Virus record (IMG/VR): IMGVR_UViG_3300044256_000031
Length of the DNA stretch: 37,775 bases
Origin: a virus
Reading direction: 5' to 3' (one strand)
Part shown: in pieces, positions 1,837 through 37,775 of the stretch
Numbering within the stretch: position 1 is the stretch's first letter
How the letters are laid out: every line of letters starts with the position of its first letter
Program-made: the position numbers and the translations under genes
The notes under the pieces: generated by a model
Database searches by the model: none
Told to the model about the DNA's origin: nothing
What the model saw: the letters and a program-made list of their open reading frames with translations, nothing else

Positions 1837-3054
1837 ATGATCTTACCTGCTACGAACGGAGTACACAAGGCTGTGGACGATCTCTACGGCGATCACTTTA
1901 CGGTGGCCCTGGCGCAGGCGATGACGCGCCTCGAATGTGCCCCCTACTGGCACGCGGAAGAGAAGGCCCCCTGTCGGCTGGTGCGGGCGGGCGAGTTGGT
2001 CCGCCTGAGTCGCGTGCAGCTCCATGACGACCGCACCGCCACCGTGCACGGCTCGACGAAGCCCTACGACATCACGGGGTTTCACTGCACCTGCCCGCAA
2101 AGCCAGAAAGGGCCGAGCAGGTGGTGCGTCCACGCCGTGGCGGTGAAGCTCGCCAGGACGATGGCCGAGAAGGCTCCGCAGGTCCTGGCCAGCGCCCCCG
2201 ATGACGAGGCCCTCGGCAACGGCTCCCCCGTCGATGACGAGACGCTGCCCTTGCCCTTACCCCCAACCACGATTGACGAACGTTTCGCCGTGTTACCCAT
2301 CCCAGCACCACAAGGAGACGTTATGCCCGCAGACGAGTATATCCCTGAGCCCGACACCGAGGACGCGCCTGTGGCAGTCGCAGAGGCCCCGAGAGCCACG
2401 CGCGCGCTGACCCCCGTCGCCCCCCAGGAGGACGACCTGGAGCGTGCCCTGACTGTGTGGACCACGCAACGCCAGGTGGTGCAACGCTTTCTCAAGCAGG
2501 AGCTGAAAGCCAACATCGACTATTACACGCTGCGCATCGGCGGCAAAGACTCGAAGCCGTCGCTGTCGAAAGCCGGCGCCGAAAAGGTCATGGGCTGGCT
2601 CAAAATCCAGGCGTCTTTCACCCCCGATACCGGCACCTGGGAGATGCTCGGCCGTCCGCAGGACCTCGTCTGCTATGTCTGCACATTGCGCACCCGCAGC
2701 GGGGAGATTGTGGGCGAAGGTCGCGGCGCCAGGTCCCTCAAGAAGGATGGCGGCGACGTCAACAAGGCGATCAAGATGGCGGAAAAGTCGGCCTGTGTGA
2801 GCGCGGTGCTGCGGACCGGCTGCTTGAGTGATGTGTTTACGCAAGATCTGGAAGAGATGCAGGAGACGGAGCCGGTGAAGCCCAACCCGCTCCATCCCGC
2901 CGCCGCGCTCCGCCAGCGCATCTGGCAGCTCGTCCAGGCACGGGCGCCCGAGGTGAAAAGCCGTGAGGCGGTGGAAACGTTCGTCAAGGCGCACACGGGC
3001 ATGGACCTGCACCCGGACTTCTATCAGGCCATTATGGAAAGACTTGAAAAATAA
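1837..3054 (+). CDS. SWIM zinc-finger protein with a C-terminal domain of uncertain function (possibly recombination/annealing related)
   Basis: 405-aa ORF. SWIM signature CTCPQSQKGPSRWCVH. A Pro/Asp/Glu-rich linker is followed by a conserved-looking C-terminal domain (KPSLSKAGAEKVMGWL ... DVNKAIKMAEKSACVSAVL). It lies in the replication module. Confidence 0.75.
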   Translation: MILPATNGVHKAVDDLYGDHFTVALAQAMTRLECAPYWHAEEKAPCRLVRAGELVRLSRVQLHDDRTATVHGSTKPYDITGFHCTCPQSQKGPSRWCVHAVAVKLARTMAEKAPQVLASAPDDEALGNGSPVDDETLPLPLPPTTIDERFAVLPIPAPQGDVMPADEYIPEPDTEDAPVAVAEAPRATRALTPVAPQEDDLERALTVWTTQRQVVQRFLKQELKANIDYYTLRIGGKDSKPSLSKAGAEKVMGWLKIQASFTPDTGTWEMLGRPQDLVCYVCTLRTRSGEIVGEGRGARSLKKDGGDVNKAIKMAEKSACVSAVLRTGCLSDVFTQDLEEMQETEPVKPNPLHPAAALRQRIWQLVQARAPEVKSREAVETFVKAHTGMDLHPDFYQAIMERLEK

Positions 3055-3072
3055 GCGGATATCGCGTCAGCA

Positions 3073-3408
3073 CCTCGCCCTGAAGGACGAGGCTTGCCGC
3101 TGGCTTACAACCGCGAGAGGGGAGCCCTCGCAGCACGCGCTACCACGGGAGCCGGTACCCAGCTCCGTTAGGGCAGACTGACAGTGCCCCAATTGCTCGC
3201 ATGCCTTTGAACTTGGAAAAAAGTATGGCGGCATAGACCAGAGCCCGACCGTTTTACCCCGCATGCGGGTGCCTTCAGCTCTGGATAGCGTGTACCAGTT
3301 GTTTTGTAACCTATGCTAGTGCAATGTGGCTCCGCCACACAAGGAATTGCCGCTCGTTGGCGGCAACCTCTTTTCCTCCCCGGCCTGAACGCCGGGGTTT
3401 CTCAGAGG
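3073..3408 (-). ncRNA. Structured repeat element, copy A (about 336 nt), RNA sense on the minus strand
   Basis: Its reverse complement aligns end to end with 19232-19587. At least 9 hairpins are retained through compensatory changes, and the G.U pairs occur only on this strand. Confidence 0.7.
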
Positions 3409-3415
3409 TTTTCTG

Positions 3416-3661
3416 ATGAGACGGGCTTCGCGCCCCCAGGCACGTACAGGAACGGGAGGACACGCCGTGAACGAGCGAACCCACCGCACCGAGGACCGGG
3501 ACTGTTGGTGTCAGCCCCGGGTTGAACAACCCTGTCGCCACTGCCAGAGCGAGAGCTGGTATGCCAGTTGTGTGTTCTGCGGGGGGCGTGGCTGGGAAGC
3601 TGCCTACGACCAAGAGACGCCAGCCGTGGTGATCCACGCGCCCCAGAAGGAGGCGCCATGA
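3416..3661 (+). CDS. Small Cys-rich (zinc-ribbon-like) hypothetical protein
   Basis: ORF with CWC...CRHC...CVFCGG. The more likely start is GTG 3467, preceded by GGGAGGA. The stop overlaps the next ATG (ATGA). Confidence 0.6.
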   Translation: MRRASRPQARTGTGGHAVNERTHRTEDRDCWCQPRVEQPCRHCQSESWYASCVFCGGRGWEAAYDQETPAVVIHAPQKEAP

Positions 3662-3879: not shown

Positions 3880-4172
3880 TCGCCGGTATCCGCAGCCCGG
3901 ACGCCCACGACACGCAGCACCACCCGCTGTCTGCGGCCCACAGCCCGACGGACGCGGCGTCCGGGCAGACGGTCTACGTCGTCTGCGGCTTTGGCGGGTG
4001 TCCGCAACGCCTGGCGGTGGACGCGGCGGTGTGGCGGGCGGAAGCGGCGCGCCGCGGGGCGCAGTCGCAGGGGGTGCAGGTGTGGCACGCGCGGGGAGAC
4101 ATCCTGGTGCCGGTGGCGCCCAACGTGGACGGGCTGGTGCCGTCAACGACTACTGGCACTGAAGTGCCGTAG
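3873..4172 (+). CDS. Hypothetical protein (99 aa)
   Basis: ATG overlaps the previous stop, and AAGGAGGA lies 6 nt upstream. Confidence 0.65.
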   Translation: MLIAGIRSPDAHDTQHHPLSAAHSPTDAASGQTVYVVCGFGGCPQRLAVDAAVWRAEAARRGAQSQGVQVWHARGDILVPVAPNVDGLVPSTTTGTEVP

Positions 4173-4217
4173 CTTGTCGCTGCCTTACAGGCAGCCAGTC
4201 CAGGAGGACTGACATCC

Positions 4218-4349
4218 ATGCGCGACCATCGGCTGGTTGACCGCAGCCGTAAGCACTCTCACGAGTGCGTGTGCAGTGATCCAGAGGCAGTCTATACGAC
4301 GGCGCCGGTGGACGATGGGAGTCCCTGTGGCCTGTTCTGTCACCGCTGA
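4218..4349 (+). CDS. Small Cys-rich hypothetical protein (43 aa, below the track cutoff)
   Basis: ATG preceded by CAGGAGGA. Translation is MRDHRLVDRSRKHSHECVCSDPEAVYTTAPVDDGSPCGLFCHR. Confidence 0.45.
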   Translation: MRDHRLVDRSRKHSHECVCSDPEAVYTTAPVDDGSPCGLFCHR

Positions 4350-4360
4350 GGAGAACAACC

Positions 4361-4567
4361 GTGCCTGAGCCCGAGCATACCTATCCGTCTCTCTACCCCC
4401 CCGGCTCGACCTGGGCGATCACCGAAGCCTGGGGCATCCTTGACCAGCTACGCCCTGGGCTGCTCGACGACGACACCCGTGCCTTCCTGGCCGGCAACAT
4501 TGCCGGTACGCTGATGCGTCTCGTGCAGAAGCACGCGCACGAGGACACGCCGTCAACCTCCCCATAG
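4361..4567 (+). CDS. Hypothetical protein (68 aa)
   Basis: GTG start preceded by GAGGAG. Same strand and spacing as the neighbouring genes. Confidence 0.6.
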   Translation: MPEPEHTYPSLYPPGSTWAITEAWGILDQLRPGLLDDDTRAFLAGNIAGTLMRLVQKHAHEDTPSTSP

Positions 4568-4599
4568 CTGAAGCAAGGGGTTTCTCGAAAGGACACGCC

Positions 4600-4914
4600 A
4601 TGACCACGCCGCGCCCCTACGCCACCCTGGAGACGCACCTGTGGTCTCCCGGCTGCACGACGTATCTCTCCTTGCCTGCCACTGACGGCTGGATGGACGT
4701 GTTCCGCGCCTGGCACTGTACGCGCTGTGGCCTGCACACGTGGGCCACGGGGGCAGTCGACGTCACGACGCGGCCGCTCTCCCCGGTCGAGTGGCAGACG
4801 CAGGCCACGGCGCAACAGGCCGGGGGTGATCTGTACGGACAGGCGGCGCGACAACAGGAACAATGGGAGCGGCAGCAGCGCGGGGTCAGCCGGCGGCTCC
4901 GGGAGGGACGGTGA
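4600..4914 (+). CDS. Hypothetical protein (104 aa)
   Basis: ATG preceded by GAAAGGA. Contains a CTRC motif and a Q-rich C-terminus. Confidence 0.65.
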   Translation: MTTPRPYATLETHLWSPGCTTYLSLPATDGWMDVFRAWHCTRCGLHTWATGAVDVTTRPLSPVEWQTQATAQQAGGDLYGQAARQQEQWERQQRGVSRRLREGR

Positions 4915-5230: not shown

Positions 5231-5258
5231 GGGCTTGTGTTGGGGTACGGGAGTGTGG
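5231..5258. repeat. 28-bp direct repeat, left copy (GGGCTTGTGTTGGGGTACGGGAGTGTGG)
   Basis: Exact repeat of 5955-5982, read directly. Confidence 0.9.
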
Positions 5259-5305
5259 GAGAGCTGTACCATAACACTTGGGAGTGTTGCGGTTAAATTA
5301 TAACC

Positions 5306-5659
5306 TCAGCATTCTTCCTTCCTGTTGATTGAAGCCTCAGTACTAAAAGCACTGCCATAACGTGACTGCAACTTCGCTATGTTTTGCGCTGCTACTGAGT
5401 TGAGGTTGAATCCAAGTGCACTACACAGCTCTGCAACATACCAGAGTACATCACCTATTTCATCGCTTAGTTTATCCAAGTTTGGTGAATCCAGGTGATA
5501 GACCATCTTCTTGATATGATCAGCAACTTCGCCTGCCTCGCCATTGAGACCTAGTGTTGCCATGAGCATGTTCTCACGTCTGTCAGTATTGTTGCGCGTG
5601 TCAATAGGTGCAAATGCACTGGTACGACGTGCCAGCTTTTGATACTCGTTAAGGTCCAT
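5306..5659 (-). CDS. mazG: MazG-like nucleoside triphosphate pyrophosphohydrolase
   Basis: 117 aa from the internal Met (MDLNEYQKLARRT...). Typical MazG helices are present: EAGEVADHIKK and EIGDVLWYVAELC. GC content is visibly low compared with the flanks. Confidence 0.85.
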   Translation of the reverse strand: MDLNEYQKLARRTSAFAPIDTRNNTDRRENMLMATLGLNGEAGEVADHIKKMVYHLDSPNLDKLSDEIGDVLWYVAELCSALGFNLNSVAAQNIAKLQSRYGSAFSTEASINRKEEC

Positions 5660-5760
5660 GCGTAGTTCTCCAGTGCTGAGGTTAGAAATTAACCTCACTA
5701 ACATCCCAAGGTTGAGGTACAGTGCTGGAGAGCACTTCTCAGTGCTCCCCTTGACAGGTT

Positions 5761-5807
5761 CCTCCTTGAACCTCCCCACGGCTAAAGCCGGGGGAGGTTC
5801 AAGGAGG
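5761..5807. repeat. 47-bp near-perfect hairpin with an IS-end-type core (CCTCCCC-N-TAAA-N-GGGGAGG) extended by a 10-bp outer stem
   Basis: CCTCCTTGAACCTCCCC ACGGCTAAAGCCG GGGGAGGTTCAAGGAGG, read directly. Confidence 0.8.
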
Positions 5808-5954: not shown

Positions 5955-5982
5955 GGGCTTGTGTTGGGGTACGGGAGTGTGG
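5955..5982. repeat. 28-bp direct repeat, right copy
   Basis: Exact repeat of 5231-5258. Confidence 0.9.
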
Positions 5983-6070
5983 TAGAAGGGGCGTCTACTG
6001 AGGCGGAACGGGCCGTGTTCAAAGCACAGCCCGATTCCTATGCACTCCCCTATCTGGACATAGGAGAGCC

Positions 6071-6541
6071 ATGTCAACACGCATTCTAGCAGCCATCCGG
6101 TCCTGTCCGCAACTCCACGGCAACCTGAAATTCACCGCCCTTGAAATTGCGCATCGTCTCAACGGTGCCGGGTATGGTCGTGTCGCCCACCAGTTTATGG
6201 CCCACAAAACGGGCTATTCCGTGCGTACTGCCTTCCGCCATGCGGGGAAGCTCGTCGCCATGGGCATCTTCGCCAAAACCGTCTATCGTACCGCCCACGG
6301 TTGCGGTATTAATCTCTACCGCTGCCTGCTGCCCATCCCAGCGTTTTATCGCGCAGCGCCAGCAACGACGCATAGTGACAGCGTGTCAGCGACTCTTCCT
6401 CCCCACGAGAAAGAAAAAGATACGAGCGTGCGTCAGGATCTCGATAACCAGCGCAAAGGCATCCGGTTCCTGACCGCTGGCAGCGATCGGTGGACCAGAG
6501 TGCTTGACGTCCTCCCACGACTAAAGTCGCGGGATTCCTAA
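6071..6541 (+). CDS. Winged-helix/HTH DNA-binding protein; the C-terminus runs into the IS right end
   Basis: The N-terminal 90 aa look like a winged-helix fold (FTALEIAHRLN...GYSVRTAFRHAGKLVAMGI). The last codons are read from the IS end hairpin at 6511-6538. RBS AGGAGAG is present. Confidence 0.6.
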   Translation: MSTRILAAIRSCPQLHGNLKFTALEIAHRLNGAGYGRVAHQFMAHKTGYSVRTAFRHAGKLVAMGIFAKTVYRTAHGCGINLYRCLLPIPAFYRAAPATTHSDSVSATLPPHEKEKDTSVRQDLDNQRKGIRFLTAGSDRWTRVLDVLPRLKSRDS

Positions 6542-6700
6542 GAGCGTTGCACGTCCGCAACGGAGTATATTATGCGCAGCATTGCGGTCCCGTTTATGCA
6601 CAGCACCACAACCAGCGCACGTCCATACTCTTACCCCCAGCGCACTCAGTCCACTCGGCCCGGTGCGAGCACCACAAGCCGAGCAAGTCACACTGGAGTA
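6495..6700 (-). ncRNA. Predicted TnpB guide RNA (omega/reRNA) scaffold overlapping the tnpB 3' end and the right end
   Basis: Placed from family knowledge only. Hairpins CGTTGC-ACGTCC-GCAACG (6545-6562) and 6511-6538 are visible. The extent is not determined. Confidence 0.35.
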
Positions 6701-7573
6701 GGATTCATTGACTTCGCCATAGATCACGCCAAGCCGCTTGGCTTTATATTCCAGGCATGTGCGAAGTTGGCCCCATCCGGCATCAAGCACAGATTTGGCC
6801 ATCCGAGTTTTGACCAACTTGGTACTGGAGACATTCCCGACAGCGATCAGCTTAGCGCGGTGCACAATGGCTGTCGTGGTCTTGTGCGTCCAGTCCTTGC
6901 GGCAATTGGCAATCTTGGCGTGGATAGCCTTGACGCGCTTCGTCTTGTTAGCTCTCTGTGCCATAGCCAGCGCGTCTTCATGCGTCCGCGTCAGGTTGTC
7001 TCTGGAGTAGGGCTCATCCATATCAGAGCACCAGAGCTGGTTGGTAAGCCCCAGGTCGATACCGATTTCTGTGTCCCCAACAGGTACGTTGGCGTCTTCA
7101 ACCTCGCACTGGAAGTTGACGTACCATCTGCCTCTCGCATCTTGCGTGAAGCTGCCAGTCTTCACTCTTCCAGTAATCGCACGCGAGAGCCAAAAGCGGA
7201 AACGGCGCTTCAAATATTTGATGGAGTCGTCGTCAATCTTCAGAAAGCGTGCCTTGAACGGTATCCATCCAAGCGACCGCTTCCGGCTACGCCACTTCAA
7301 GCGTCGTTTCCTGGCAGCCACACGCTTCGCAACGTACTCCCGGCATATCTCGCTGATCGTGTCAGAATGCAAACCAAGTTCAGCGCCAGCGCCAGCACAC
7401 AGGTTAATCAGTTCAAATGTAGACAGCCAGTGCTTGTCTCGACGCAGCGCCAGCATGGATACCTCGTTACAGAAGTTCCAGACGGTATTGACGGCCCAGC
7501 CAAGGCGCACAAGGTGCTTACTGCTTGTAGAGTCTTTGATCCTGTATTTGAAGGTCAGCATACTACTTGGCAT
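6521..7573 (-). CDS. tnpB: TnpB (IS605 OrfB-type RNA-guided nuclease family), non-canonical RuvC-II position
   Basis: 350 aa with RuvC-I GIDLG, the conserved block SVLDAGWGQL, zinc ribbon CSACG...CAGCG, and RuvC-III HKRDRNAAHNI. Confidence 0.9.
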   Translation of the reverse strand: MPSSMLTFKYRIKDSTSSKHLVRLGWAVNTVWNFCNEVSMLALRRDKHWLSTFELINLCAGAGAELGLHSDTISEICREYVAKRVAARKRRLKWRSRKRSLGWIPFKARFLKIDDDSIKYLKRRFRFWLSRAITGRVKTGSFTQDARGRWYVNFQCEVEDANVPVGDTEIGIDLGLTNQLWCSDMDEPYSRDNLTRTHEDALAMAQRANKTKRVKAIHAKIANCRKDWTHKTTTAIVHRAKLIAVGNVSSTKLVKTRMAKSVLDAGWGQLRTCLEYKAKRLGVIYGEVNESYSSVTCSACGARTGPSGLSALGVRVWTCAGCGAVHKRDRNAAHNILRCGRATLLGIPRL

Positions 7574-7973
7574 GGTGGCTCTCTTGCGCTTCGATGTACT
7601 TCTTTATCGTATCAGCAGAGACATGCCCAGCCGTGCCAACGTAATAGCTTGGAGCCCACAGCCTATCAGAGCGCGTGCGTTTGCGGAGCTGGGGATACAT
7701 CAAGCGGAGTTGGCGAGCAGAAATACCTTTGAAGAGCTTGACGGATTGCGCGATAGACATCGTAGGCGGCATAGAGACGAAGAGGTGTACGTGATCCGGT
7801 TGGACATCGACAGCCAAAACATCCATGTGGTTCTGGTGGGCAATCGTATGCAACAGATTCTCCAACGTCGTCTTGACTGGCTCTTGAAGCACATCACGAC
7901 GATACACCGGACGCCACACTATATGATATGCTGTCAGGTATACGCAACCTCTTGTATGTATAGGTTCATTCAT
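7563..7973 (-). CDS. tnpA: IS200-type Y1 (HUH) transposase TnpA
   Basis: 136 aa with YHIVWRPVYRR, the HUH motif HVHLFVSMPP, and the catalytic-Tyr region PSYYVGTAG. Confidence 0.9.
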   Translation of the reverse strand: MNEPIHTRGCVYLTAYHIVWRPVYRRDVLQEPVKTTLENLLHTIAHQNHMDVLAVDVQPDHVHLFVSMPPTMSIAQSVKLFKGISARQLRLMYPQLRKRTRSDRLWAPSYYVGTAGHVSADTIKKYIEAQESHHAK

Positions 7974-8101
7974 ATGTTAATGGTAGCACAAAACTGTTGC
8001 GTTTGCAACGCAACGTTGCTTTCCTCCCCGCACTGAAGTACGGGGTCTCCAGCAACGATTTCTTAGGAAGAGATCACCCGATTGGAGGGCCTGCTGATGC
8101 C

Positions 8102-9194: not shown

Positions 9195-9507
9195 GCCTCA
9201 GCGCCCCAGCGGGATGGCCCGCAGCAGCTCGATCACCACGAGCACCAGGGCTGCAATCCCCAGGAGCAAGAAGACCGTCACCACGGATGCTCTCCTCTGG
9301 CGCGGGACCGTCCGCAGACGCGTCCACCGGTTCGGGCGTTGCGAGCACTTCTTCCAGCACCTGCACCGCCCCAGCGATCCGCAGCAGCATCTCGCTGAGC
9401 ACGGTGCGCCGCGTCTCCAGCTGCGTGAGCGCGTCGTTCCCGGTGGCGAGTTCCTGGCGCAGCGTGGCCAGGCGGGCCTCGACGGCGGGGCGCAGGGCGG
9501 CGCTCAG
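9187..9507 (-). CDS. Coiled-coil-like hypothetical protein with a possible CTG start; the C-terminal part is doubtful
   Basis: The frame is open from 9585 with no ATG/GTG/TTG before 9402. CTG 9507 overlaps the upstream TGA (CTGA) and has GGGAGG 6 nt upstream. Translation ALRPAVEARLATLRQELATGNDALTQLETRRTVLSEMLLRIAG looks genuine. Confidence 0.35.
   Translation of the reverse strand: MSAALRPAVEARLATLRQELATGNDALTQLETRRTVLSEMLLRIAGAVQVLEEVLATPEPVDASADGPAPEESIRGDGLLAPGDCSPGARGDRAAAGHPAGALRRG
9198..9284 (-). CDS. 28-aa hydrophobic peptide (single TM)
   Basis: GTG start preceded by GAGGAG about 8 nt upstream. Translation is VVTVFLLLGIAALVLVVIELLRAIPLGR. Confidence 0.4.
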   Translation of the reverse strand: MVTVFLLLGIAALVLVVIELLRAIPLGR

Positions 9508-9863
9508 GCTTCGCCTCCCGTCGCCACCTGCGCGATCGAGTTCCAGTAAAAGGTGATAGCACTGCTCAGCGCCAGATCCGGCGCACTACTATCGACCAGC
9601 ATGGGGTCTTCGCTCGGCACCACCGTGCCCAAGATGACCCGCCCCGGCGCATTCGAGCGACAAATCGCCAGGGCAATCGTCGGTGCCGTCTGTGCCGGGT
9701 ACGTCAGAAACGTATGCGCCAGGTTGACCCGTGCCTCGTGCTCGGGCGTGGCCTGGTCTTCATCGACGACGCGCGCCGCCTCGTCCCAGGCCAGGTACTG
9801 CACGCGGGTGAGGAATGCGTCACTGGCGACCAGTTGCATCTGTTCGGTGGACGGTTCGGCCAT
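9504..9863 (-). CDS. Hypothetical protein (119 aa)
   Basis: Clean ORF with an ATG start and coding-like composition. No recognisable motif. Confidence 0.7.
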   Translation of the reverse strand: MAEPSTEQMQLVASDAFLTRVQYLAWDEAARVVDEDQATPEHEARVNLAHTFLTYPAQTAPTIALAICRSNAPGRVILGTVVPSEDPMLVDSSAPDLALSSAITFYWNSIAQVATGGEA

Positions 9864-9885
9864 ACTATCAATCTCGTTTCTAGTA

Positions 9886-10327
9886 CTCCACCTAGACCAC
9901 TTCCGAGTGGTTAGGTGGGGGTGAAGGAAACGTTGCCCCCCACGAGGGGCAATTCCCTATGCAGCGGAGCTGCACAAATCAGTTGCATAGGTCACAATAT
10001 ACAAGGTACGATTAGCACAGACCTTGTGTCTCCGTCCGTTGAGCTTCAATGCTGACGTGACGGCTTGCTCTTTGCACTTCGCATAGGGCGTTGTCCGGGG
10101 AAGTCCCGGACGTAAAATGTGAAACGTTGAGAGATACATTGCCATGCTGCTCCCTGGGCTCTGAGGCCGATGCGAAGGTGTCGCCCAACCCGGAGCGCTG
10201 GTTTGACAGCACCTGTCAGGAACTGGCAGCGGCCGTAATGATGTATCCAGAGAACCAATACCGTGTTGTCCGGTGGTTCTCCGGTGAGCCGGAATCTCCA
10301 TCGAGATCGCGTAGCGATTAGGTGGAG
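9886..10327 (+). ncRNA. Structured noncoding element, copy C (divergent relative of A/B, about 442 nt)
   Basis: A 468-bp gap with no credible ORF. The 5' roughly 110 nt share the A/B module (hairpin, UUGCCCC/GGGGCAA stem, CAAUUCCCU, UGCAGC/GCUGCA stem, UUGCAUAGGUCACAAUAUA). CTCCACCTA (9886-9894) is complementary to TAGGTGGAG (10319-10327). Confidence 0.5.
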
Positions 10328-17275: not shown

Positions 17276-19210
17276 CTAACGATTCAGGCTCGCCAGTAGA
17301 CTGGTCGCATTATTCGTGGCCCCGCCCAGGGCGCGTTGCCAGGACAACGCCGGCCCCAAGGCCCCCAGACCCTGCGCATTGCCGAGCTGCCCGAGCAGAC
17401 TCGCTTGCTGCTGGGCATAGTTCGCCCCCTGCGTGCCGAGTTGACCTACGCTTGTTTGCCCGATGTTCGCAAGCCCAGCGAGCCTGTTCCACTGCGTCTG
17501 CTGGTTCTGGAGCTGGCTGTTGTACTGCGCCAGCATGCGCTCATAGTCCGTGGCGTTTTGCGCCGTATCCCGCCCGTACTGCGTCTGCGACTGCTGCATC
17601 ATGCGGTCGTAGACACTCTGGTCATACGCCTGGCGCTGCTGCTGCTCCCACTGCTGCCCGGTGAGCCCTTGCTGCCAGGCCGTCTGCTGCCCCTGCAGGG
17701 CCTGCTGCCAGTTCTGGCTCCCGGCCTGCTGCGCCAGGTGTTCCCGCACGCCCGTCTCCCCCATGGCCCGCGACCAGTCGAACTGCTGCCCGGCCATCCC
17801 CTGCTGCCACTGCTGCCCTTGCGCGCCGAGCACCTGCGAGAAGCCCTGCTGCGACGCTTGCTGCGCCATCTGCTCACGGAAGGCGGCTTCGGTCTGGGCC
17901 TGCGACCAGCCCTGTTGGGTGGCAACGTGTTGGAGCTGCTCGCGGAGCTGCGCCGCACTCATGGCCTGGCCAAAGTTTTGCGCCGTGGCCTGTTGGCCCC
18001 ATTGTTCGCGCATCTGGGCTTCCTGCGCCGCCTGCCCAAACCCTTGCTGCGTGGCGTATTGGTTCCAGCCCTCGCGCATCTGCGCCTGCTGGCTGGCGCG
18101 CTCGAAGGCGTTGCCGTACTCCTGCGAGGAGAGTTCCTGCCCCTGGCGCTGGAGGGCGGCCAGCGCCGGCCCGGAGAGCGCGCCGCCCCGCGCGGCCGCC
18201 GAGGCCTCCATGGCGTTGCGGCCTTCCTGGAGCCGAAAAGCCACGCCCGGATCGTTCGCGAGCAGCTCCTGCCCGCTCAAGGTCGGCACGGCCCCCGGCG
18301 TGTACCGATAGTCGGCGGCCCGGGGCGCACTGCCCGGGGTGTAGCGGTACTGCGCCGCGTCGGGAGTCTGGCCCGGCGTGTAGCGATAGTCCTGCGCCCG
18401 CGGTCCCTGGCCTGGCGTCCAGCGGTAGTCCCCCGCCTGCACGGCCTGCGGCCCCTGATAGCCGTACTGGCTGGCCTGGGGAACGGCCCCCGGCGTGTAG
18501 CGGTAGGCGTCCGGGTTTGGCACGCCCCAGAGGCCACCGCCCCCCGTCCCTGTGGCAGGGTCGCCCGTCATCCCATGCGTCATCATGCCGCTCATGTCCC
18601 CGCCGCCTGGACGTTGGGGTCCCGCGTACGCCATCGGGCTCCAGGTCGGGGCGATCTGCGGCAAGGCGTACCCGGCCCCACTGATGGACGGCGGCGGCTG
18701 GAAGGCCGCCTGCGGCCCCTGCCCGGCGAGCTGCTGGAGCTGTGGCAAGGCCTGCTGTCCGGCCTGGAGCCATGGCGCCTGATTGGCCTGCTGCTGGAGC
18801 CACTGCGCCGTCTGGAGGTCCATGCCCCGGTTCAGGGCCGCCGCCTGCTGCCGGGCCGCGTCGGCGCTGGCGTTGCTGCCAATGGCGCCACCCGCCAGCG
18901 ACCCCGCGCCACTCACGAGCGGGCCGAGCACGCCGGCGTGCTGGCCGAGGAAGCCGCCGACACTGCCGAGCGCACCGAGGATCGTGTTCCACCAGTTGCC
19001 GCTGCCTTCTCCCGTCAAGCTCGGATCGCCACTGGAGCCCGGGCCATACGGGTCGTTCCAGCTGAGGAAATCCTCGGAGCCCCCCATGCCGCTGAAATTG
19101 GTATATTCCGGCCCCGCCCCGCCAAAGGCATCGCCCCACCCTGGCGCCATGACCGTGCCGTAGCCCTCGCCACTGCCCAGGTCGAGATTCAGCCAATCCC
19201 ACTCGCTCAT
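17276..19210 (-). CDS. Gly/Gln-rich repetitive internal (ejection-type) protein
   Basis: 644 aa. It carries five (Y/W)R(Y/W)TPG repeats (nt 18293-18508) and about five 22-aa AQMREqWxQxATQQGFGQA repeats (nt 17681-18088). Confidence 0.8.
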   Translation of the reverse strand: MSEWDWLNLDLGSGEGYGTVMAPGWGDAFGGAGPEYTNFSGMGGSEDFLSWNDPYGPGSSGDPSLTGEGSGNWWNTILGALGSVGGFLGQHAGVLGPLVSGAGSLAGGAIGSNASADAARQQAAALNRGMDLQTAQWLQQQANQAPWLQAGQQALPQLQQLAGQGPQAAFQPPPSISGAGYALPQIAPTWSPMAYAGPQRPGGGDMSGMMTHGMTGDPATGTGGGGLWGVPNPDAYRYTPGAVPQASQYGYQGPQAVQAGDYRWTPGQGPRAQDYRYTPGQTPDAAQYRYTPGSAPRAADYRYTPGAVPTLSGQELLANDPGVAFRLQEGRNAMEASAAARGGALSGPALAALQRQGQELSSQEYGNAFERASQQAQMREGWNQYATQQGFGQAAQEAQMREQWGQQATAQNFGQAMSAAQLREQLQHVATQQGWSQAQTEAAFREQMAQQASQQGFSQVLGAQGQQWQQGMAGQQFDWSRAMGETGVREHLAQQAGSQNWQQALQGQQTAWQQGLTGQQWEQQQRQAYDQSVYDRMMQQSQTQYGRDTAQNATDYERMLAQYNSQLQNQQTQWNRLAGLANIGQTSVGQLGTQGANYAQQQASLLGQLGNAQGLGALGPALSWQRALGGATNNATSLLASLNR

Positions 19211-19231
19211 CCTGCTCTCCCTTCACAGTAG

Positions 19232-19587
19232 CCTCCGGGAAACCCAGGCTCTTGGAGCTTGGGAGGGATAGGAGGTTGGCTCGTAGAGCCAATTCCCTGT
19301 TAGCGGGACGCCAATTCCCTCTGCGCGTAGCGCACATTCCCCTTGCTTAGGTTACAAAATACTAGATAGACTTTTACCAGAGCTGAAGGCACACCAGCGA
19401 TGGTGCTGAAACGGTTGGGCTCTGGTTGTGCCGCCATACTTCTTTCCCGAGTTAAAAGGCATCAAGGTACACAGGCCGCAGTCAATCGGCCTAACGCGAG
19501 AAGGTACTTCTCGTAAAGTAGCGCATCGAACAGGGCTACCCTCTGTGTCGTGTAAGCCAGCTACAAGCCCAAGGATTTATCCTTGGG
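19232..19587 (+). ncRNA. Structured repeat element, copy B (about 356 nt), RNA sense on the plus strand
   Basis: Homologous to the reverse complement of 3073-3408, with covarying stems. The terminal hairpin loop contains the stop codon of CDS 19577..20698. Confidence 0.7.
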
Positions 19588-20698
19588 TGGTTGACCTGTG
19601 CAGGTTCGCCAGGGTGGGCTGCCGCCGCCGGGCCAGTCCCTGCATGACGCCCTGCGTGACGCCTTTGGCGGCCCCGAGTAAGCCCTGCACGCCACTCCCC
19701 GCCTGCCCAAGTTGCCCCGCCAGCCCGAGATAGCGACTGGCCTGCTGGAGCGGGTCGGCCCCCGGGATGCGCCCCAGCGACCCCGTGATCCGCCCGGCAC
19801 TCTGCGCCAGGCGCGCCGCATCACTGAGCGAGTGGATGCCCCCGCCCAGCACGTTGGTCAGGCCGCCAATGCCCCCGGCCAGCCCGCCCGCGATGCCCAG
19901 CCCCAGGCCCAGGTTCCGCAACCACGGCTGGTTGGTGGCGTGCCCAAGGACGCCCGCCCCGGTGCCCGCGATGCCCGAGAGCGTGCCGAGGCTCCCGAGC
20001 GTGGTGGCCAGGCCCGCGCCCCCCGCAAACAAGGGAGCGGCGGCCAAGCCACCCGTGGCCCCCAGGCCCAGCACGCCGAGCGCGCCGATGAGGTTGTCGC
20101 CCAGCGGGTTAAAGGCATCACTCGCCTGCGGCACACTGGCCCGATAGTCCCAATCGCCCGCCATGCCCACAACCTTGCGGTACAAGTCGCGTTCCTGCGT
20201 GGAGGCCTTCCCGGCTTCGAGCTTGTCGCGCAAGGTGAGCACAATCCCGCCCACGTCCGGGCTGCCGGGATCGAGCGACGTCCACCAGTCTTTGTTGGCG
20301 TGCTCCCCGGCGTACTCCCCCTGCCAGCCGGCCTGTAACTGGCTGATGTCGCGAGTGGGAATCGCCCTGGCTTGCTGCTCCCACTGCTGATACTGCTCCC
20401 GCTCCCAGGGCTGCGCCTGCCCCGCACGGACCCGGTCCCGCAAGGCCAGGAGCTCCGTCACATAGCCCGGCGCGGTCTCCGGCATACTCCCCTGCCAGGC
20501 ACGGTGCTCCGGCGCCCACTGAAAGGCCTCGTGCCCATACTGCGCCGTATTGCGATACTCCGGCAGTTTCGTCGTGCCCTCGATACCCCAGGTGATCTTC
20601 TCGCCATTCGGCAAGGTGATCTCGCCAGGTTCAGGGATGTTCGCCCCTTCCTCGCTCTCGTCCACAATGCCCGTGCCAGGAACATACCACTTGGCCAC
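19577..20698 (-). CDS. Gly-rich membrane-active internal/ejection protein
   Basis: 373 aa. GTG start with AGGAGG upstream. The C-terminal half is made of G/A/L-rich hydrophobic repeats. Confidence 0.75.
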   Translation of the reverse strand: MAKWYVPGTGIVDESEEGANIPEPGEITLPNGEKITWGIEGTTKLPEYRNTAQYGHEAFQWAPEHRAWQGSMPETAPGYVTELLALRDRVRAGQAQPWEREQYQQWEQQARAIPTRDISQLQAGWQGEYAGEHANKDWWTSLDPGSPDVGGIVLTLRDKLEAGKASTQERDLYRKVVGMAGDWDYRASVPQASDAFNPLGDNLIGALGVLGLGATGGLAAAPLFAGGAGLATTLGSLGTLSGIAGTGAGVLGHATNQPWLRNLGLGLGIAGGLAGGIGGLTNVLGGGIHSLSDAARLAQSAGRITGSLGRIPGADPLQQASRYLGLAGQLGQAGSGVQGLLGAAKGVTQGVMQGLARRRQPTLANLHRSTTQG

Positions 20699-20708
20699 TC
20701 AGCACCTC

Positions 20709-21311
20709 CTACGGCGGCGGCAGCAGCGCCGGCCACCACGTACACTGACACGTCAGCGCCCCGGCCGCGCCGTACCCCGCGCCCACGGGCTGCGCCAGCA
20801 CCTGATACGCACTCGGCACCGTGAAACCGCCCTGGCCACGCCAGCCGGTGCTACTGCCCGTGGTGCCTGCGGTCACGGCAGCCGCAACGCCCCAGCGATC
20901 CGCCACGACGCTATCGCCTACCAGCAGCCCGGTCAGCGTGCCCGTGAACGTCGTGACTATGCGCCACGTGACCCCCACCACCTGCGCCCCAGCCGGGGCC
21001 ATGGCGGCGAACGTGAGCCCCGCCGCGCCACTCACGGCCACGGTAAGCGTCGTCGTCTGCGGCTGCACGAGGGCGGCCACCTGGGCGGCGAGCGCGTCCA
21101 GCTCGGCCTGGAGCGTGGCCACGAGGGCCTCGAAGGCGTCGAGATCGCTCCGCAGGGCGTCCACGTCCCGACGTAAGACGGCAAGGTCCACCTGCGCCTG
21201 GCCAAGCTGGCGCGCGACGTCCGAAAGCCACCGTTGCCAGGGAGGCGTGATGATGGCCCCAGGCTGGATGAGGGCTTCCCGGGCAGGGGCGGGCGCGAGG
21301 ATGTCGGCCAC
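20709..21311 (-). CDS. Coiled-coil tail needle-like protein with a C-terminal knob related to the fibre repeat domain
   Basis: 200 aa. The heptad-like segment is LGQAQVDLAVLRRDVDALRSDLDAFEALVATLQAELDALAAQVAALV. The C-terminus contains LTGLLVGDSVVADRWG. Its position after the gp10-like gene matches P22 gp26. Confidence 0.65.
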   Translation of the reverse strand: MADILAPAPAREALIQPGAIITPPWQRWLSDVARQLGQAQVDLAVLRRDVDALRSDLDAFEALVATLQAELDALAAQVAALVQPQTTTLTVAVSGAAGLTFAAMAPAGAQVVGVTWRIVTTFTGTLTGLLVGDSVVADRWGVAAAVTAGTTGSSTGWRGQGGFTVPSAYQVLAQPVGAGYGAAGALTCQCTWWPALLPPP

Positions 21312-21331
21312 TGGTATTCCACCTTAAACTA

Positions 21332-21410
21332 TGGTATACTTCTAGGGTATACTTCGCTTGTGGGACTAGGGATTGCAACCCGAAAGCGCGTTTCCGGCGC
21401 GTTGTCCCAC
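21332..21410 (+). promoter_or_regulatory. Promoter-like boxes (TGGTATACT, TAGGGTATACT) plus a structured 5' leader for HNH gene 1
   Basis: TATACT lies at 21335-21340 and 21348-21353. A stem GTGGGAC (21360-66) / GTCCCAC (21404-10) encloses the conserved TAGGGATTGCAACCCGAAAGC. Confidence 0.5.
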
Positions 21411-21445: not shown

Positions 21446-22210
21446 ATGCCGCATAAAGACCCTGAAGTTGCGCGTGCCTACAGTCGTGCCTATCGCCGTA
21501 CTCACAACCAAAAGACCACTGCCTATAATCGTGCCTATGCTGCCGAGCACAAAGAAGAACTTGCCGCAAAGGCCGTCGTCTATCGCGACGTGAACAGAGA
21601 AAAACTGCGCGCACAAAGCCGCGCCTACGAGGCAGCGAATAAAGAGACACGCCTTGCGAGGGCTCGTGCATACAAAAAAATCTCTCAGGCGAAAAATCGC
21701 GAACGACTTCAGGTGATTAGCAAAGCGTACTATCACTCCCATCAAGAAGAACGCAAGGCGAAGAATCGTGCGTATCGTGCGGCCCATAGAGACCATTTCA
21801 ATGCTATCAGTAAAGCGTATTATGAAGCGCATAAAGACGATCCAATTGCTCGCGCCAAAAGACGTGCTGCACTTTCAGCATGGCAGAAAGCCAATCCTGA
21901 AAAAGTCATAGCAGCTACACATCGACGGAGAGCCCGCAAAGCTGGAGCCACCATCAATGACCTGACCGCCGCCCAATGGCGTGAGATGAAAGAGCATTAC
22001 GGCTACCGTTGCGTCTATTGTAGCCGTAAGATGCAACGCCTCACGCAAGATCACATCACTCCCGTAGGACCTGAAGGGCCACATACCGTACACAACGTTG
22101 TCCCTGCCTGCGGCTCCTGTAACTCAAAGAAGGGGCGAAAAGCTCCGCTGTGCCCTGTTCAGCCGTTGTTCTTGACCATTACACCACCAAGGAAAAAGAA
22201 AACCTCATGA
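21446..22210 (+). CDS. Free-standing HNH endonuclease with an N-terminal array of AY-rich helical repeats
   Basis: The C-terminus reads CVYCSRKMQRLTQDHITPV...HNVVPACGSCNSKKG. The N-terminus has repeated RAYxxAxKE-type units. GC content is low, and the gene is antisense to the late operon. Confidence 0.85.
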   Translation: MPHKDPEVARAYSRAYRRTHNQKTTAYNRAYAAEHKEELAAKAVVYRDVNREKLRAQSRAYEAANKETRLARARAYKKISQAKNRERLQVISKAYYHSHQEERKAKNRAYRAAHRDHFNAISKAYYEAHKDDPIARAKRRAALSAWQKANPEKVIAATHRRRARKAGATINDLTAAQWREMKEHYGYRCVYCSRKMQRLTQDHITPVGPEGPHTVHNVVPACGSCNSKKGRKAPLCPVQPLFLTITPPRKKKTS

Positions 22211-23786: not shown

Positions 23787-24503
23787 ATGTCCTACAGAGG
23801 CTCTGAAGCCCAGAAAGCCTACAATCGCGCCTTTAGCCGTGCCTACTATGCGCATCTGCGTGAACAAGAAGCCCTTGATCCTGCCTTGAAAGAGGCTCAT
23901 CGGGCTCAGAAGCGTGCTTATGATCTGATCTACCATGCCGCCAATCGTGTGAAAAGACAGGAACAACAACGCCTTAAACGCCTTGCTGATCCTAAACAAA
24001 GACTCACGCATGATGCTACCTATCGCCTGCGACATGCGGAAGAGATCGCTGTGCGTCGTCTTGCCTATGGACTCGCCAATCCTGAAAAACGGCGTCAAAC
24101 TGTACGCACCTATGACCTTACACCTCCTGAATACGTTATCTTGAAGGCCGAGCGCCGCCGTGCACGCAAACGTGGTCTCCCTGACACTTTCACCGTGATA
24201 GAGCAAGCCTTCTGTCGGCAGTATTTTCACTACTCCTGCGCCATCTGTAAGCGAGAAGAGGGTTTTGAATGGATCGTCTCTATGGATCATTGGATACCCA
24301 TAACCTCGACAGCCTGTCCTGGCACTATCGCTACCAATATGATTCCTCTGGGCCACGGCCTTGGTGGCTGTAACAACTCCAAGTCAGATAAAGACCCTGA
24401 GCCCTGGCTGACCAAGCGCTTCGGGAAACGGAAAGCCGCCGTGATCCTCAAGCGTATTCACGCCTATTTCGCCCTCGTTGCCGCGAAGGAGCAAGCCTCA
24501 TGA
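23787..24503 (+). CDS. Free-standing HNH endonuclease (second copy, divergent)
   Basis: Contains CAICKREEGFEWIVSMDHWIPIT...GHGLGGCNNSKSDKD and N-terminal AY-type helical repeats. GC content is low, and the gene is antisense to the late operon. Confidence 0.8.
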   Translation: MSYRGSEAQKAYNRAFSRAYYAHLREQEALDPALKEAHRAQKRAYDLIYHAANRVKRQEQQRLKRLADPKQRLTHDATYRLRHAEEIAVRRLAYGLANPEKRRQTVRTYDLTPPEYVILKAERRRARKRGLPDTFTVIEQAFCRQYFHYSCAICKREEGFEWIVSMDHWIPITSTACPGTIATNMIPLGHGLGGCNNSKSDKDPEPWLTKRFGKRKAAVILKRIHAYFALVAAKEQAS

Positions 24504-37436: not shown

Positions 37437-37717
37437 GGTGGTCTTGTGGTGGTCTTGGGTGGTCTTGGCAGTTGAACCGCTATTTTCCTTCTCCAAGACC
37501 ACTAAGACCACTAAGACCACATAAAAGGAGAAAAGATATATAAAACGGAAACACCATCATCGTCGATAACGTCGATAACGTCGATAACGGGGGTGAATAC
37601 TATAGTAGTACGGGAAATGGTGTGCTTTGTGGTCTTGGTGGTCTTTCGCGAGTAACGACGTAGAGATATGCAAGACCAGCTCCAAAAATGGGTGGTCTTG
37701 CCACGGAGGTGGTCTTG
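37437..37717. promoter_or_regulatory. Iteron-type replication origin
   Basis: GGTGGTCTTG occurs three times in tandem (37437-37467). The inverted motif (C/T)AAGACCAC occurs three times (37494-37520). An AT-rich stretch follows (37521-37545), then CGTCGATAA three times in tandem (37561-37587). Further GGTCTT(G/T) copies lie at 37628-37646, 37691-37700 and 37708-37717. Confidence 0.7.
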
Positions 37718-37775
37718 TGGCCGATACGCAACTCGATCTGATGTCCTGGTCTCCCCCCATGCAGCACACCGAGCG
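37649..37775. repeat. Terminal direct repeat, second copy (includes the helicase 5' end)
   Basis: Identical to 1-127. Confidence 0.95.

Follow-up and report, generated by a model that had tools for sequence, protein, structure and literature searches.

Palindrome-associated transposable elements (PATEs) were first named in Haloquadratum (PMC3119063). They often encode guide RNAs that require use in trans, and guide-RNA-bearing PATEs have been described in Geobacillus stearothermophilus (PMC10055086). In ISDra2, a pseudoknot that is conserved in all Cas12 guide RNAs joins positions -2..-6 to positions -102..-106, directly before the guide (PMC10097598). The left cleavage/target site of IS608 is located about 19 nucleotides (nt) 5' of the hairpin foot (PMC3201880), and IscB scaffolds derive from the right end and have a 5' guide (PMC10055086). 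Here, the viral DNA of record IMGVR_UViG_3300044256_000031 was analyzed over its whole length of 37,775 nt (the window). Besides a resident autonomous insertion sequence (IS) of the IS200/IS605 type, the window carries two gene-less elements, A and B, two fragments, H and N, and a 48-nt one-hairpin element. We consider it likely that all five are non-autonomous IS200/IS605 elements (PATEs), with a TnpB-type guide-RNA scaffold in the full copies. Gene-less IS200/IS605 elements with such a scaffold are a class already described in bacteria (PMC10055086); A and B represent a new family of it in a new setting. We infer the mechanism, i.e., the expression of A and B, their use in trans and their mobility.

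Element A was mapped as a complete gene-less IS200/IS605 derivative of 350 nt (3066..3415, minus strand). From left to right, it comprises a two-tier hairpin (3367-3408), the hairpins P2 and P3, a conserved block (TAGCATAGGTTACAAAA..TACACG) and a structured RNA body, with a pseudoknot hairpin (about 3170-3192), the right-end hairpin (3072-3093) and the terminal GCTGAC in its right part. Judged from this architecture, the 3' flank of A (GCGATATCCGCTTATTTTTC; 3046..3065, minus strand) would serve as the guide segment in case of RNA read-out past the right end, as occurs with TnpB guide RNAs. Element B, also complete, is 372 nt long (19224..19595, plus strand) and shows the left-end hairpin at 19232-19275, the pseudoknot hairpin at about 19471-19493, the right-end hairpin at 19567-19588 and the terminal GTTGAC, followed by the 3' flank CTGTGCAGGTTCGCCAGGGT. 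The two elements share 78% identity, and where they differ, the helices are kept. Fragment H (4142..4290, minus strand) is a 3' half, consisting of the guide-RNA scaffold and the right end with the terminal GTCGTTGAC. At a syntenic site in L014, element C has a 3' half that matches fragment H with 93.5% identity. Fragment N (9864..10024, plus strand) is a 5' part with a variant P1, P2, P3 and the conserved block, and it abuts CCAT. The minimal one-hairpin element (4552..4599, minus strand) consists of TCAT, 19 nt, CCCCTTGC-TTCA-GCTATGGGG and AGGTTGAC. This element might represent the minimal unit that can be mobilised, or else a solo product of recombination. In total, the phage carries two full and three partial copies in 37.6 kb.

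The left ends of A and B were compared with that of the resident IS. The sequence-only reading of this DNA had quoted a recurrent hairpin at these three left ends, and all of the quoted sequences were found where it had placed them, with a common two-tier fold. In the resident IS, the hairpin (8015..8056, minus strand) reads GTTGCT-GGAGA-CCCCGTAC-TTCA-GTGCGGGG-AGGAAA-GCAAC and contains an inner TnpA-type hairpin (8026-8045), the loop of which is TTCA and which has one T.G wobble. The hairpins of A and B (minus and plus strand, respectively) were exact matches, with none expected from shuffled sequences. When folded as single-stranded DNA on the element strand, the IS left end, A and B each had a two-tier minimum-energy structure, i.e., an outer helix of 5-6 bp and an inner helix of 7-9 bp that is closed by a TTCA or TTG loop and separated from the outer helix by internal loops rich in purines (5' side, GGAGA or GAGAAA; 3' side, AGGAAA). 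The fold z-scores of the three hairpins were -3.45, -3.26 and -1.84, and the inner stem of the IS was shorter when the opposite strand was folded. Relatives of the resident IS were obtained via TnpA homologues in bacterial contexts. The two-tier architecture was kept in L163, L164, L192, L193 and L182, and the outer stem of the IS left end covaried among relatives (GTTGC/GCAAC, GGGCA/TGCCC, GTGT/ACAC).

A census of the window for GC-rich hairpins of at least 7 bp with TTCA, TTTA or TTG loops matched only the left and right ends of the IS and both ends of A and B, each on the element sense strand. A solo, right-end-like long hairpin of the resident-IS type was mapped at 5761..5807 (minus strand; z-score -10.3). 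It reads CCCCCGGC-TTTA-GCCG(T)GGGG followed by AGGTTCAAG, to be compared with the resident IS right end ...GGGAGGACGTCAAG. It had been claimed that the imperfect pair is a G.T wobble on the same strand in every copy. This was borne out for the wobbles on the tnpA/tnpB-sense or element strand; it does not apply to the solo hairpin at 5761-5807, which has a one-base bulge (T, minus strand) instead. The recurrence of the hairpin is a matter of common descent.

The relation to genuine IS200/IS605 elements was examined with an nhmmer profile built from 11 A/B-like elements from phage contigs. This profile matched the left ends of L196 (E 1e-9), L182 (4e-6), L193 (1.5e-5) and the Rhizobium tnpA/tnpB element L197 (8e-4). 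The L196 match belongs to a TnpB IS carried by Salmonella/Citrobacter plasmids, and the TnpA proteins of L182 and L193 are 78% and 76% identical to the resident TnpA. In L182 and L193, the similarity to A/B continues through the next hairpin and a TTCC motif. Thus, the 5' 55-90 nt or so of the family are homologous to left ends of TnpB- or TnpA-encoding elements. A BLAST search of A against plasmids returned 41 records with 86-89% identity over the first 53 nt (E 2e-9). In Salmonella NZ_CP022492.1, the A-like stretch is followed after 60 nt by a gene annotated as "RNA-guided endonuclease TnpB family protein", and a Rhizobium replicon has such a stretch bordering a tnpA/tnpB pair. The resident left-end hairpin alone reached only E 0.62 against the A/B profile, and it is the left ends of related IS copies that give the statistical support; therefore, the link to the resident IS is one of lineage and not of near identity.

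In order to determine the structured strand, consensus folds of both strands were compared. The full type-1 set folded with -108 kcal/mol on the strand chosen in the sequence-only reading vs -88 kcal/mol on its complement, and the 3' part with -45 vs -28 kcal/mol. On the former strand, G.U pairs outnumbered A.C pairs by 36 vs 6 in the full type-1 set and by 42 vs 5 in the 3' part. In every copy, the structured strand runs antisense to the phage genes beside it, which excludes that the structure is a leader, a terminator or an intron on the gene strand. The earlier idea of IscB-type guide RNAs beginning at the left end had to be given up, because the IscB scaffold comes from the right end (PMC10055086) and the structured strand excludes the orientation.

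The strand test also bears on the possibility that the hairpins are generic terminators or 5'-leader structures with a coincidental likeness to IS ends. Read in gene sense, the 5' hairpin is followed by TTTCTC and stands just before a Shine-Dalgarno sequence and an ATG, as would suit such structures. However, the strand test favours the antisense strand, the hairpin type is confined to IS and element ends, and significant matches to IS left and right ends exist elsewhere. Moreover, a scan of both strands with a terminator consensus called none of the census hairpins terminator-like, and terminator-like sites were not enriched (15 vs 10.1 ± 3.0), so that a generic terminator consensus, named beforehand as an objection, does not explain the similarity. 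This explanation can practically be disregarded.

The right end of the family was analyzed with a covariance model, R1, which was built from the last 130 nt of three members. R1 matched all family members and, over its whole length, L182:1403-1513 (37 bits, E about 4e-8 to 1e-7). This match corresponds to the last ~105 nt of a 402-aa, Pfam-identified TnpB open reading frame (ORF) plus 4 nt. Exactly the same place was matched in L200, L201, L202 and L203-205 (E 2.5e-7 to 3.9e-5), i.e., at four independent TnpB homologues that are 83, 80, 65 and 65% identical to the L182 protein and lie on contigs of 82-194 kb. Altogether, these TnpB-X proteins (395-402 aa, Pfam-confirmed) represent five independent loci, and the R1 matches each end with GTCGTTGAC. 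In a plain alignment, the shared region extended to about 170 nt, with ATGCCGCCATAC of A/B aligning with the NIAAKY codons of TnpB-X. Estimated from this alignment, the scaffold is probably ~170 nt long; it is part of a structured RNA of ~230 nt, and the scaffold module ends at the element boundary in A/B. The homologues of TnpB-X with ~65% identity carry the source names Roseiflexaceae and Chloroflexales metagenome-assembled genomes. Going by these names, which are the only host hint, the TnpB-X lineage probably belongs to Chloroflexota.

The 3' domain shows signs of structural selection. In a model-guided alignment of 11 copies, 94.8% of cells paired, compared with 71.5% in shuffles and 38-46% with slid partners, and compensatory changes were present in 26 of 36 pairs. 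The last six bases of the element form a pseudoknot with the loop of a hairpin ~110 nt upstream. All 54 of 54 cells of this pseudoknot paired in nine copies, which was reached by 0.15% of permutations. Loop and tail covaried (GTCAG/CTGAC, GTCAA/TTGAC), and in L153 one base pair of the pseudoknot was deleted on both sides (GTAAC/GTTAC). A nested tail helix (CAGC/GYTG) was considered and dropped in favour of the pseudoknot, since the loop covaries with the tail. In L023:1900-1965, element F has a second hairpin (AGATCGCTTCTTAGCGATT) inserted in the loop of the right-end hairpin and keeps the tail GCTGAC.

These patterns are difficult to reconcile with A and B being decaying relics of internally deleted TnpB-X-type insertion sequences that are no longer expressed or mobile. 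Decay would be in line with the shortened copies (H, N and a remnant in L145), with the lack of a cognate tnpB nearby and with the shuffling of modules among copies. Yet, copies that are 70-80% identical keep ~95% of their pairs, those of the pseudoknot included, through compensatory changes; a 30-nt block is free of indels in 12 copies, and neither is expected of neutral decay; and no TnpB coding remnant was detectable inside the elements by tblastn. We regard loss of function as quite unlikely and retain the interpretation as PATEs with a selected guide-RNA scaffold.

The most conserved parts of the element are located further upstream, i.e., a 5' RNA domain (CCAGAGC-TGAAGGCAC-hairpin-AAACGGTTG-GGCTCTGG) and the invariant 30-nt block (TTGCAT-AGGTTACAAA..-TAYACT). 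By its resemblance to a consensus, this block looks like a promoter. By eye, it resembled the tnpB-X promoter region (TTGCATATGGTAcAAT vs TTGCATAGGTTACAAA); homology of the two was not supported by nhmmer, in which the similarity was not significant. A predicted long-range pair (GGTTAC/GTAGC) showed no covariation. Rfam searches with gathering and E-value thresholds returned noise only (HgcC 0.9, sot0042 0.76, HEARO 6).

The family comprises 11 distinct members, which came from nhmmer searches after viral and metagenome contigs had been scanned for motifs. All of them are located on phage-like contigs, and some phages have two copies. The element-bearing contigs include IMGVR_UViG_3300044726_000244, 3300045884_000239, 3300009610_000057, 3300017437_000075 and Ga0268265_10000298. 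Full elements are 350-420 nt long, lack a transposase or nuclease gene and are mosaics of exchangeable modules. When 185,579 reference genomes were scanned with TAGGTTACAAA..AAGGCAC, 109 chance matches and zero family members were obtained; all occurrences of the core RNA were in contigs of viruses or metagenomes. Neither B nor the IS had a BLAST match among phage records, and no protein common to the element-bearing loci was found beyond structural genes.

The left flanks of the family share a conserved motif, YCAT. Of the 11 copies, 8 have TCAT, and the remaining ones have CCAT, TTAT and CCTT. The distance from the flank motif to the foot of the inner hairpin is 18 nt. TnpB-X elements have a CCAT flank in four of five cases, likewise have a two-tier left end and show the same 18 nt to the hairpin foot. 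At the other end, the terminal YTGAC lies 7-8 nt past the right-end hairpin.

Since YCAT reads ATGR on the other strand, the junction often is a start codon. The TCAT abutting A (3416..3419, minus strand) is the complement of the ATGA that holds the start codon of ORF 3416-3661 (plus strand), and AGAGG, the complement of the outer stem, is located 7 nt upstream of this start. Likewise, the TCAT of the 48-nt element (4600-4603) holds the start codon of ORF 4600-4914 (plus strand), and the CCAT of fragment N (9860-9863) that of ORF 9504-9863 (minus strand). In 8-9 of 12 junctions, the ATG opens an ORF of 57-451 aa. These ORFs include trbC on a Salmonella plasmid (IncF; L196:301-304) and a verified homologue of ORF 20709-21311 in L145 (~2017-2023). 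The complement of the outer stem (GGAGG, AGAGG or TGAGG) is found 5-8 nt upstream of the junction ATG. From this spacing, the left end appears to donate a ribosome-binding site to the abutting gene, which would explain the antisense copies exactly at gene starts.

The same arrangement could be taken as evidence that the elements, while true IS200/IS605 derivatives, have been co-opted for a non-homing phage function, such as antisense control of ribosome-binding sites, TldR-like repression or a TnpB decoy, with the ends reflecting only ancestry. All copies are antisense to flanking genes, with the 5' end overlapping the neighbour's start region; the 5' RNA domain is the most conserved part and yet absent from TnpB-X loci; and the phage retains two full copies plus fragments. 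However, the neighbours vary (an 81-aa ORF, a 644-aa structural protein, plasmid trbC), which leaves no common target. Selection acts on the structure of the boundary-adjacent pseudoknot and of the right-end hairpin, as for a working guide-RNA scaffold, and the antisense placement is explained more simply by insertion at YCAT = ATGR and survival of harmless insertions. Thus, co-option is judged unlikely, and mobile elements with a guide-RNA scaffold are preferred.

The resident autonomous IS200/IS605 element was mapped to 6504..8072 (minus strand) by comparing its ends with L157, L163, L164, L192 and L193. It encodes tnpA (7563-7973, minus strand; Pfam Y1_Tnp 7.5e-39) and tnpB (6521-7573, minus strand; Pfam Cas12f1-like_TNB 5.7e-22), with the right-end hairpin at 6513-6534 (minus strand) and the terminus at 6504 (...GGACGTCAA). 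On the left, the boundary was placed between 8068 and 8072. The conserved left end begins TCCTAAGAAATC, and GTGAT at 8073-8077 is a candidate flank motif. The tnpB 3' end together with the right end is 70-74% conserved in distant plasmids. A second left-end hairpin, GTTGCGT-TGCAA-ACGCAAC followed by AGTTTTG (7996..8014, minus strand), is terminator-like in tnpA sense, and its stem covaries in L164 and L192 (GTTACCAT/ATGGTAAC). A 156-aa ORF (6071-6541, plus strand) overlaps the IS right end (6504-6541), and its last ~12 codons are transposon sequence; the IS probably truncated or extended this ORF. A further copy of the same IS was found in L157 (also L158-L162) at 1700-1830, with 99% TnpA identity and 91% DNA identity. 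This copy is located in a different phage-like context, adjoins an Endonuclease_7 gene and has an unrelated 16-nt palindrome (GTACAGCATGCTGTAC) in place of the left-end hairpin. Because the left-end hairpin is replaced, the L157 copy is probably immobile.

Since nuclease, TnpA and elements occur in one genome, and both RNA types end in a hairpin plus a short tail able to pair upstream, the resident TnpB (6521-7573) might be supposed to take A/B RNAs in trans as extra guides. We consider this very unlikely. The resident TnpB is only 27% identical to TnpB-X, and its own 3' scaffold (6504-6716) showed no similarity to A/B by nhmmer or R1. Moreover, the terminal motifs (GTCAA vs YTGAC) and the candidate flank motifs (GTGAT vs YCAT) differ. 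As judged by the low identity and the unrelated scaffold, the resident TnpB is an unlikely partner of the A/B RNA. On the viral contig L182/L199 (IMGVR_UViG_3300011009_000012), two elements are present ~870 nt apart, namely a TnpB-X-only IS with an A/B-type scaffold and a tnpA-bearing IS605 relative of the resident IS.

Several observations weigh against A and B being mobile IS200/IS605 derivatives with a TnpB-X scaffold. The phage genome contains no TnpB-X gene. Pattern-based scans of low sensitivity found neither TnpA nor TnpB-X on element-bearing contigs, and the other A/B-bearing loci were without tnpA or tnpB within the fetched flanks. The A/B left end is closest to Salmonella-type and IS605-type ends and only weakly like the TnpB-X left end (E 5). 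Since left end and scaffold resemble different lineages, the elements are mosaic. No significant counterpart of the 5' RNA domain (TAGGTTACAAA, CCAGAGCTGAAGGCAC) was found in TnpB-X loci. By eye, the AGAA of the 5' internal loop could match TCAT according to the IS608 rule, and there was no consistent covariation of the two among copies. The left flank of B is an atypical CCTT (19220-19223), and the pseudoknot of L023 has one A.C. A clean empty site of high identity was not found: the flanks are ~77% identical and rearranged at the junction, which makes the exact joints unreadable, and relatives for exact empty-site mapping of A and B are only 60-77% identical.

On balance, the left-end, flank and right-end evidence supports the core of the sequence-only reading, i.e., that A and B are non-autonomous IS200/IS605-type elements with TnpA-type hairpins and possibly an orphan guide scaffold. 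The association with IS200/IS605 genes that it anticipated was found in the matches of the left ends to TnpB/TnpA elements and of the 3' domain to five TnpB loci, and the common target motif in YCAT at a fixed 18 nt from the hairpin foot.

In the mechanism that we propose, a Y1 TnpA, encoded by the resident IS (6504-8072) or by the host, would mobilise the elements as single strands into YCAT sites. Transcripts would cross the right end, by which the flank would become the guide. A host TnpB-X, probably of Chloroflexota, would load the RNA in trans and cut element-free sites consisting of YCAT plus flank, and recombination after cutting would restore or spread the element. A tentative extension, to which we give limited credence, is that the phage elements use the host TnpB as a homing nuclease, for which each copy would transcribe a guide against its own empty site. 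Element-free co-infecting phages would then be cut at YCAT plus flank and converted by recombination, and the complement of the outer stem (CCTCC/GGAGG) would act as a ribosome-binding site that renders insertions at ATGR harmless.

Bases 1-127 of the window are identical to bases 37649-37775, and this 127-bp overlap closes the contig circularly at 37,648 bp. The genome has a G+C content of 62% and encodes a P22-type portal, coat, large and small terminase, a VapE-type primase and a helicase. Because of the end overlap and the P22-type gene set, the window is taken to be a complete P22-like podophage genome of ~37.6 kb.

Element sites vary among related phages. The B site is empty in L145 and L146, and a site that holds an HNH gene in the present phage is occupied by a full copy in L150 and by a shortened copy in L145. 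The gene in question (21446-22210, plus strand) occupies the intergenic site of the A/B-type element in L150 and L145. It is one of two HNH-type endonuclease genes, the other being located at 23787-24503 (plus strand). Both are free-standing, antisense in the structural operon and have a repeated N-terminal motif (40-nt repeats at 21450, 21828 and 23791). Beside the B site, the 644-aa ORF 17276-19210 contains three 39-nt tandem units (13-residue repeats) at 18294-18436, and over the N-terminal ~76 residues it bears no resemblance to its homologue in L145. A tandem GGTATACTT motif (ggtatacttctagggtatactt) upstream of ORF 20709-21311 (21325-21356) was also found at the L150 element junction; it may be an operator or a late promoter. 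The MazG region is flanked by a 32-nt direct repeat (GGGCTTGTGTTGGGGTACGGGAGTGTGG.AGA; 5231-5262 and 5955-5986), the copies of which are 97% identical and 724 nt apart; it may be a promoter or an operator. A 24-nt inverted repeat (5288-5311 and 5674-5697, 88% complementary) brackets the MazG-like gene (5306-5651).

The family provides a testable case of guide-RNA-only transposon derivatives in a virus, with the matching nuclease lineage in likely host genomes. If the RNAs are loaded in trans, phages would exchange selfish elements via host-dependent RNA-guided homing. In addition, a guide-RNA scaffold family absent from Rfam and its TnpB clade are defined, and YCAT is a candidate target motif, which is useful for the mining of compact nucleases. 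A left end that provides the neighbouring gene with a ribosome-binding site would explain the position of the elements exactly at start codons.

Among known systems, REP/RAYT sequences are short extragenic hairpins related to IS200/IS605 ends, like the hairpins at 4552-4599 and 5761-5807. Unlike them, the phage hairpins have no RAYT gene, are single copies and show A/B-type flank and terminal motifs. HEARO and IsrB-IscB RNAs (RF02033) are, like A/B, large structured RNAs of the IS200/IS605 superfamily with many gene-less copies. In contrast, A/B have no Rfam match (best E 6, wrong strand), and the IscB scaffold lies on the strand opposite to the structured A/B strand. IS608 shares with A/B the subterminal imperfect top-strand hairpins, and its left distance of 19 nt compares with 18 nt in A/B. 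Its right cleavage site lies 10 nt past the right-end hairpin, as compared with 7-8 nt in A/B. However, the left hairpin of A/B is nested in an outer helix with purine-rich loops, and the motif is YCAT instead of TTAC.

The comparison with the ISDra2 omega/reRNA (PMC8612924, PMC10097598) concerns the right end. In both, the scaffold occupies the 3' end of the element, the flank past the right end is (or, in A/B, would be) the guide, and a hairpin directly precedes the 3' strand of the pseudoknot. The A/B pseudoknot joins -1..-6 with about -110 and has the same topology as that of ISDra2. A/B differ in lacking sequence similarity, in having YCAT instead of TTGAT and in having the scaffold outside a tnpB reading frame. 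As compared with PATEs, A/B are phage-borne, carry a promoter-like block and, in addition, a 5' RNA domain that is conserved, combine a left end and a scaffold that resemble different IS lineages, and appear to give the neighbouring gene a Shine-Dalgarno sequence through the complement of the outer stem. They share with PATEs the absence of a protein gene, hairpins at both ends on one strand, a left flank motif and a scaffold abutting the right end, which in both cases would need a TnpB encoded elsewhere.

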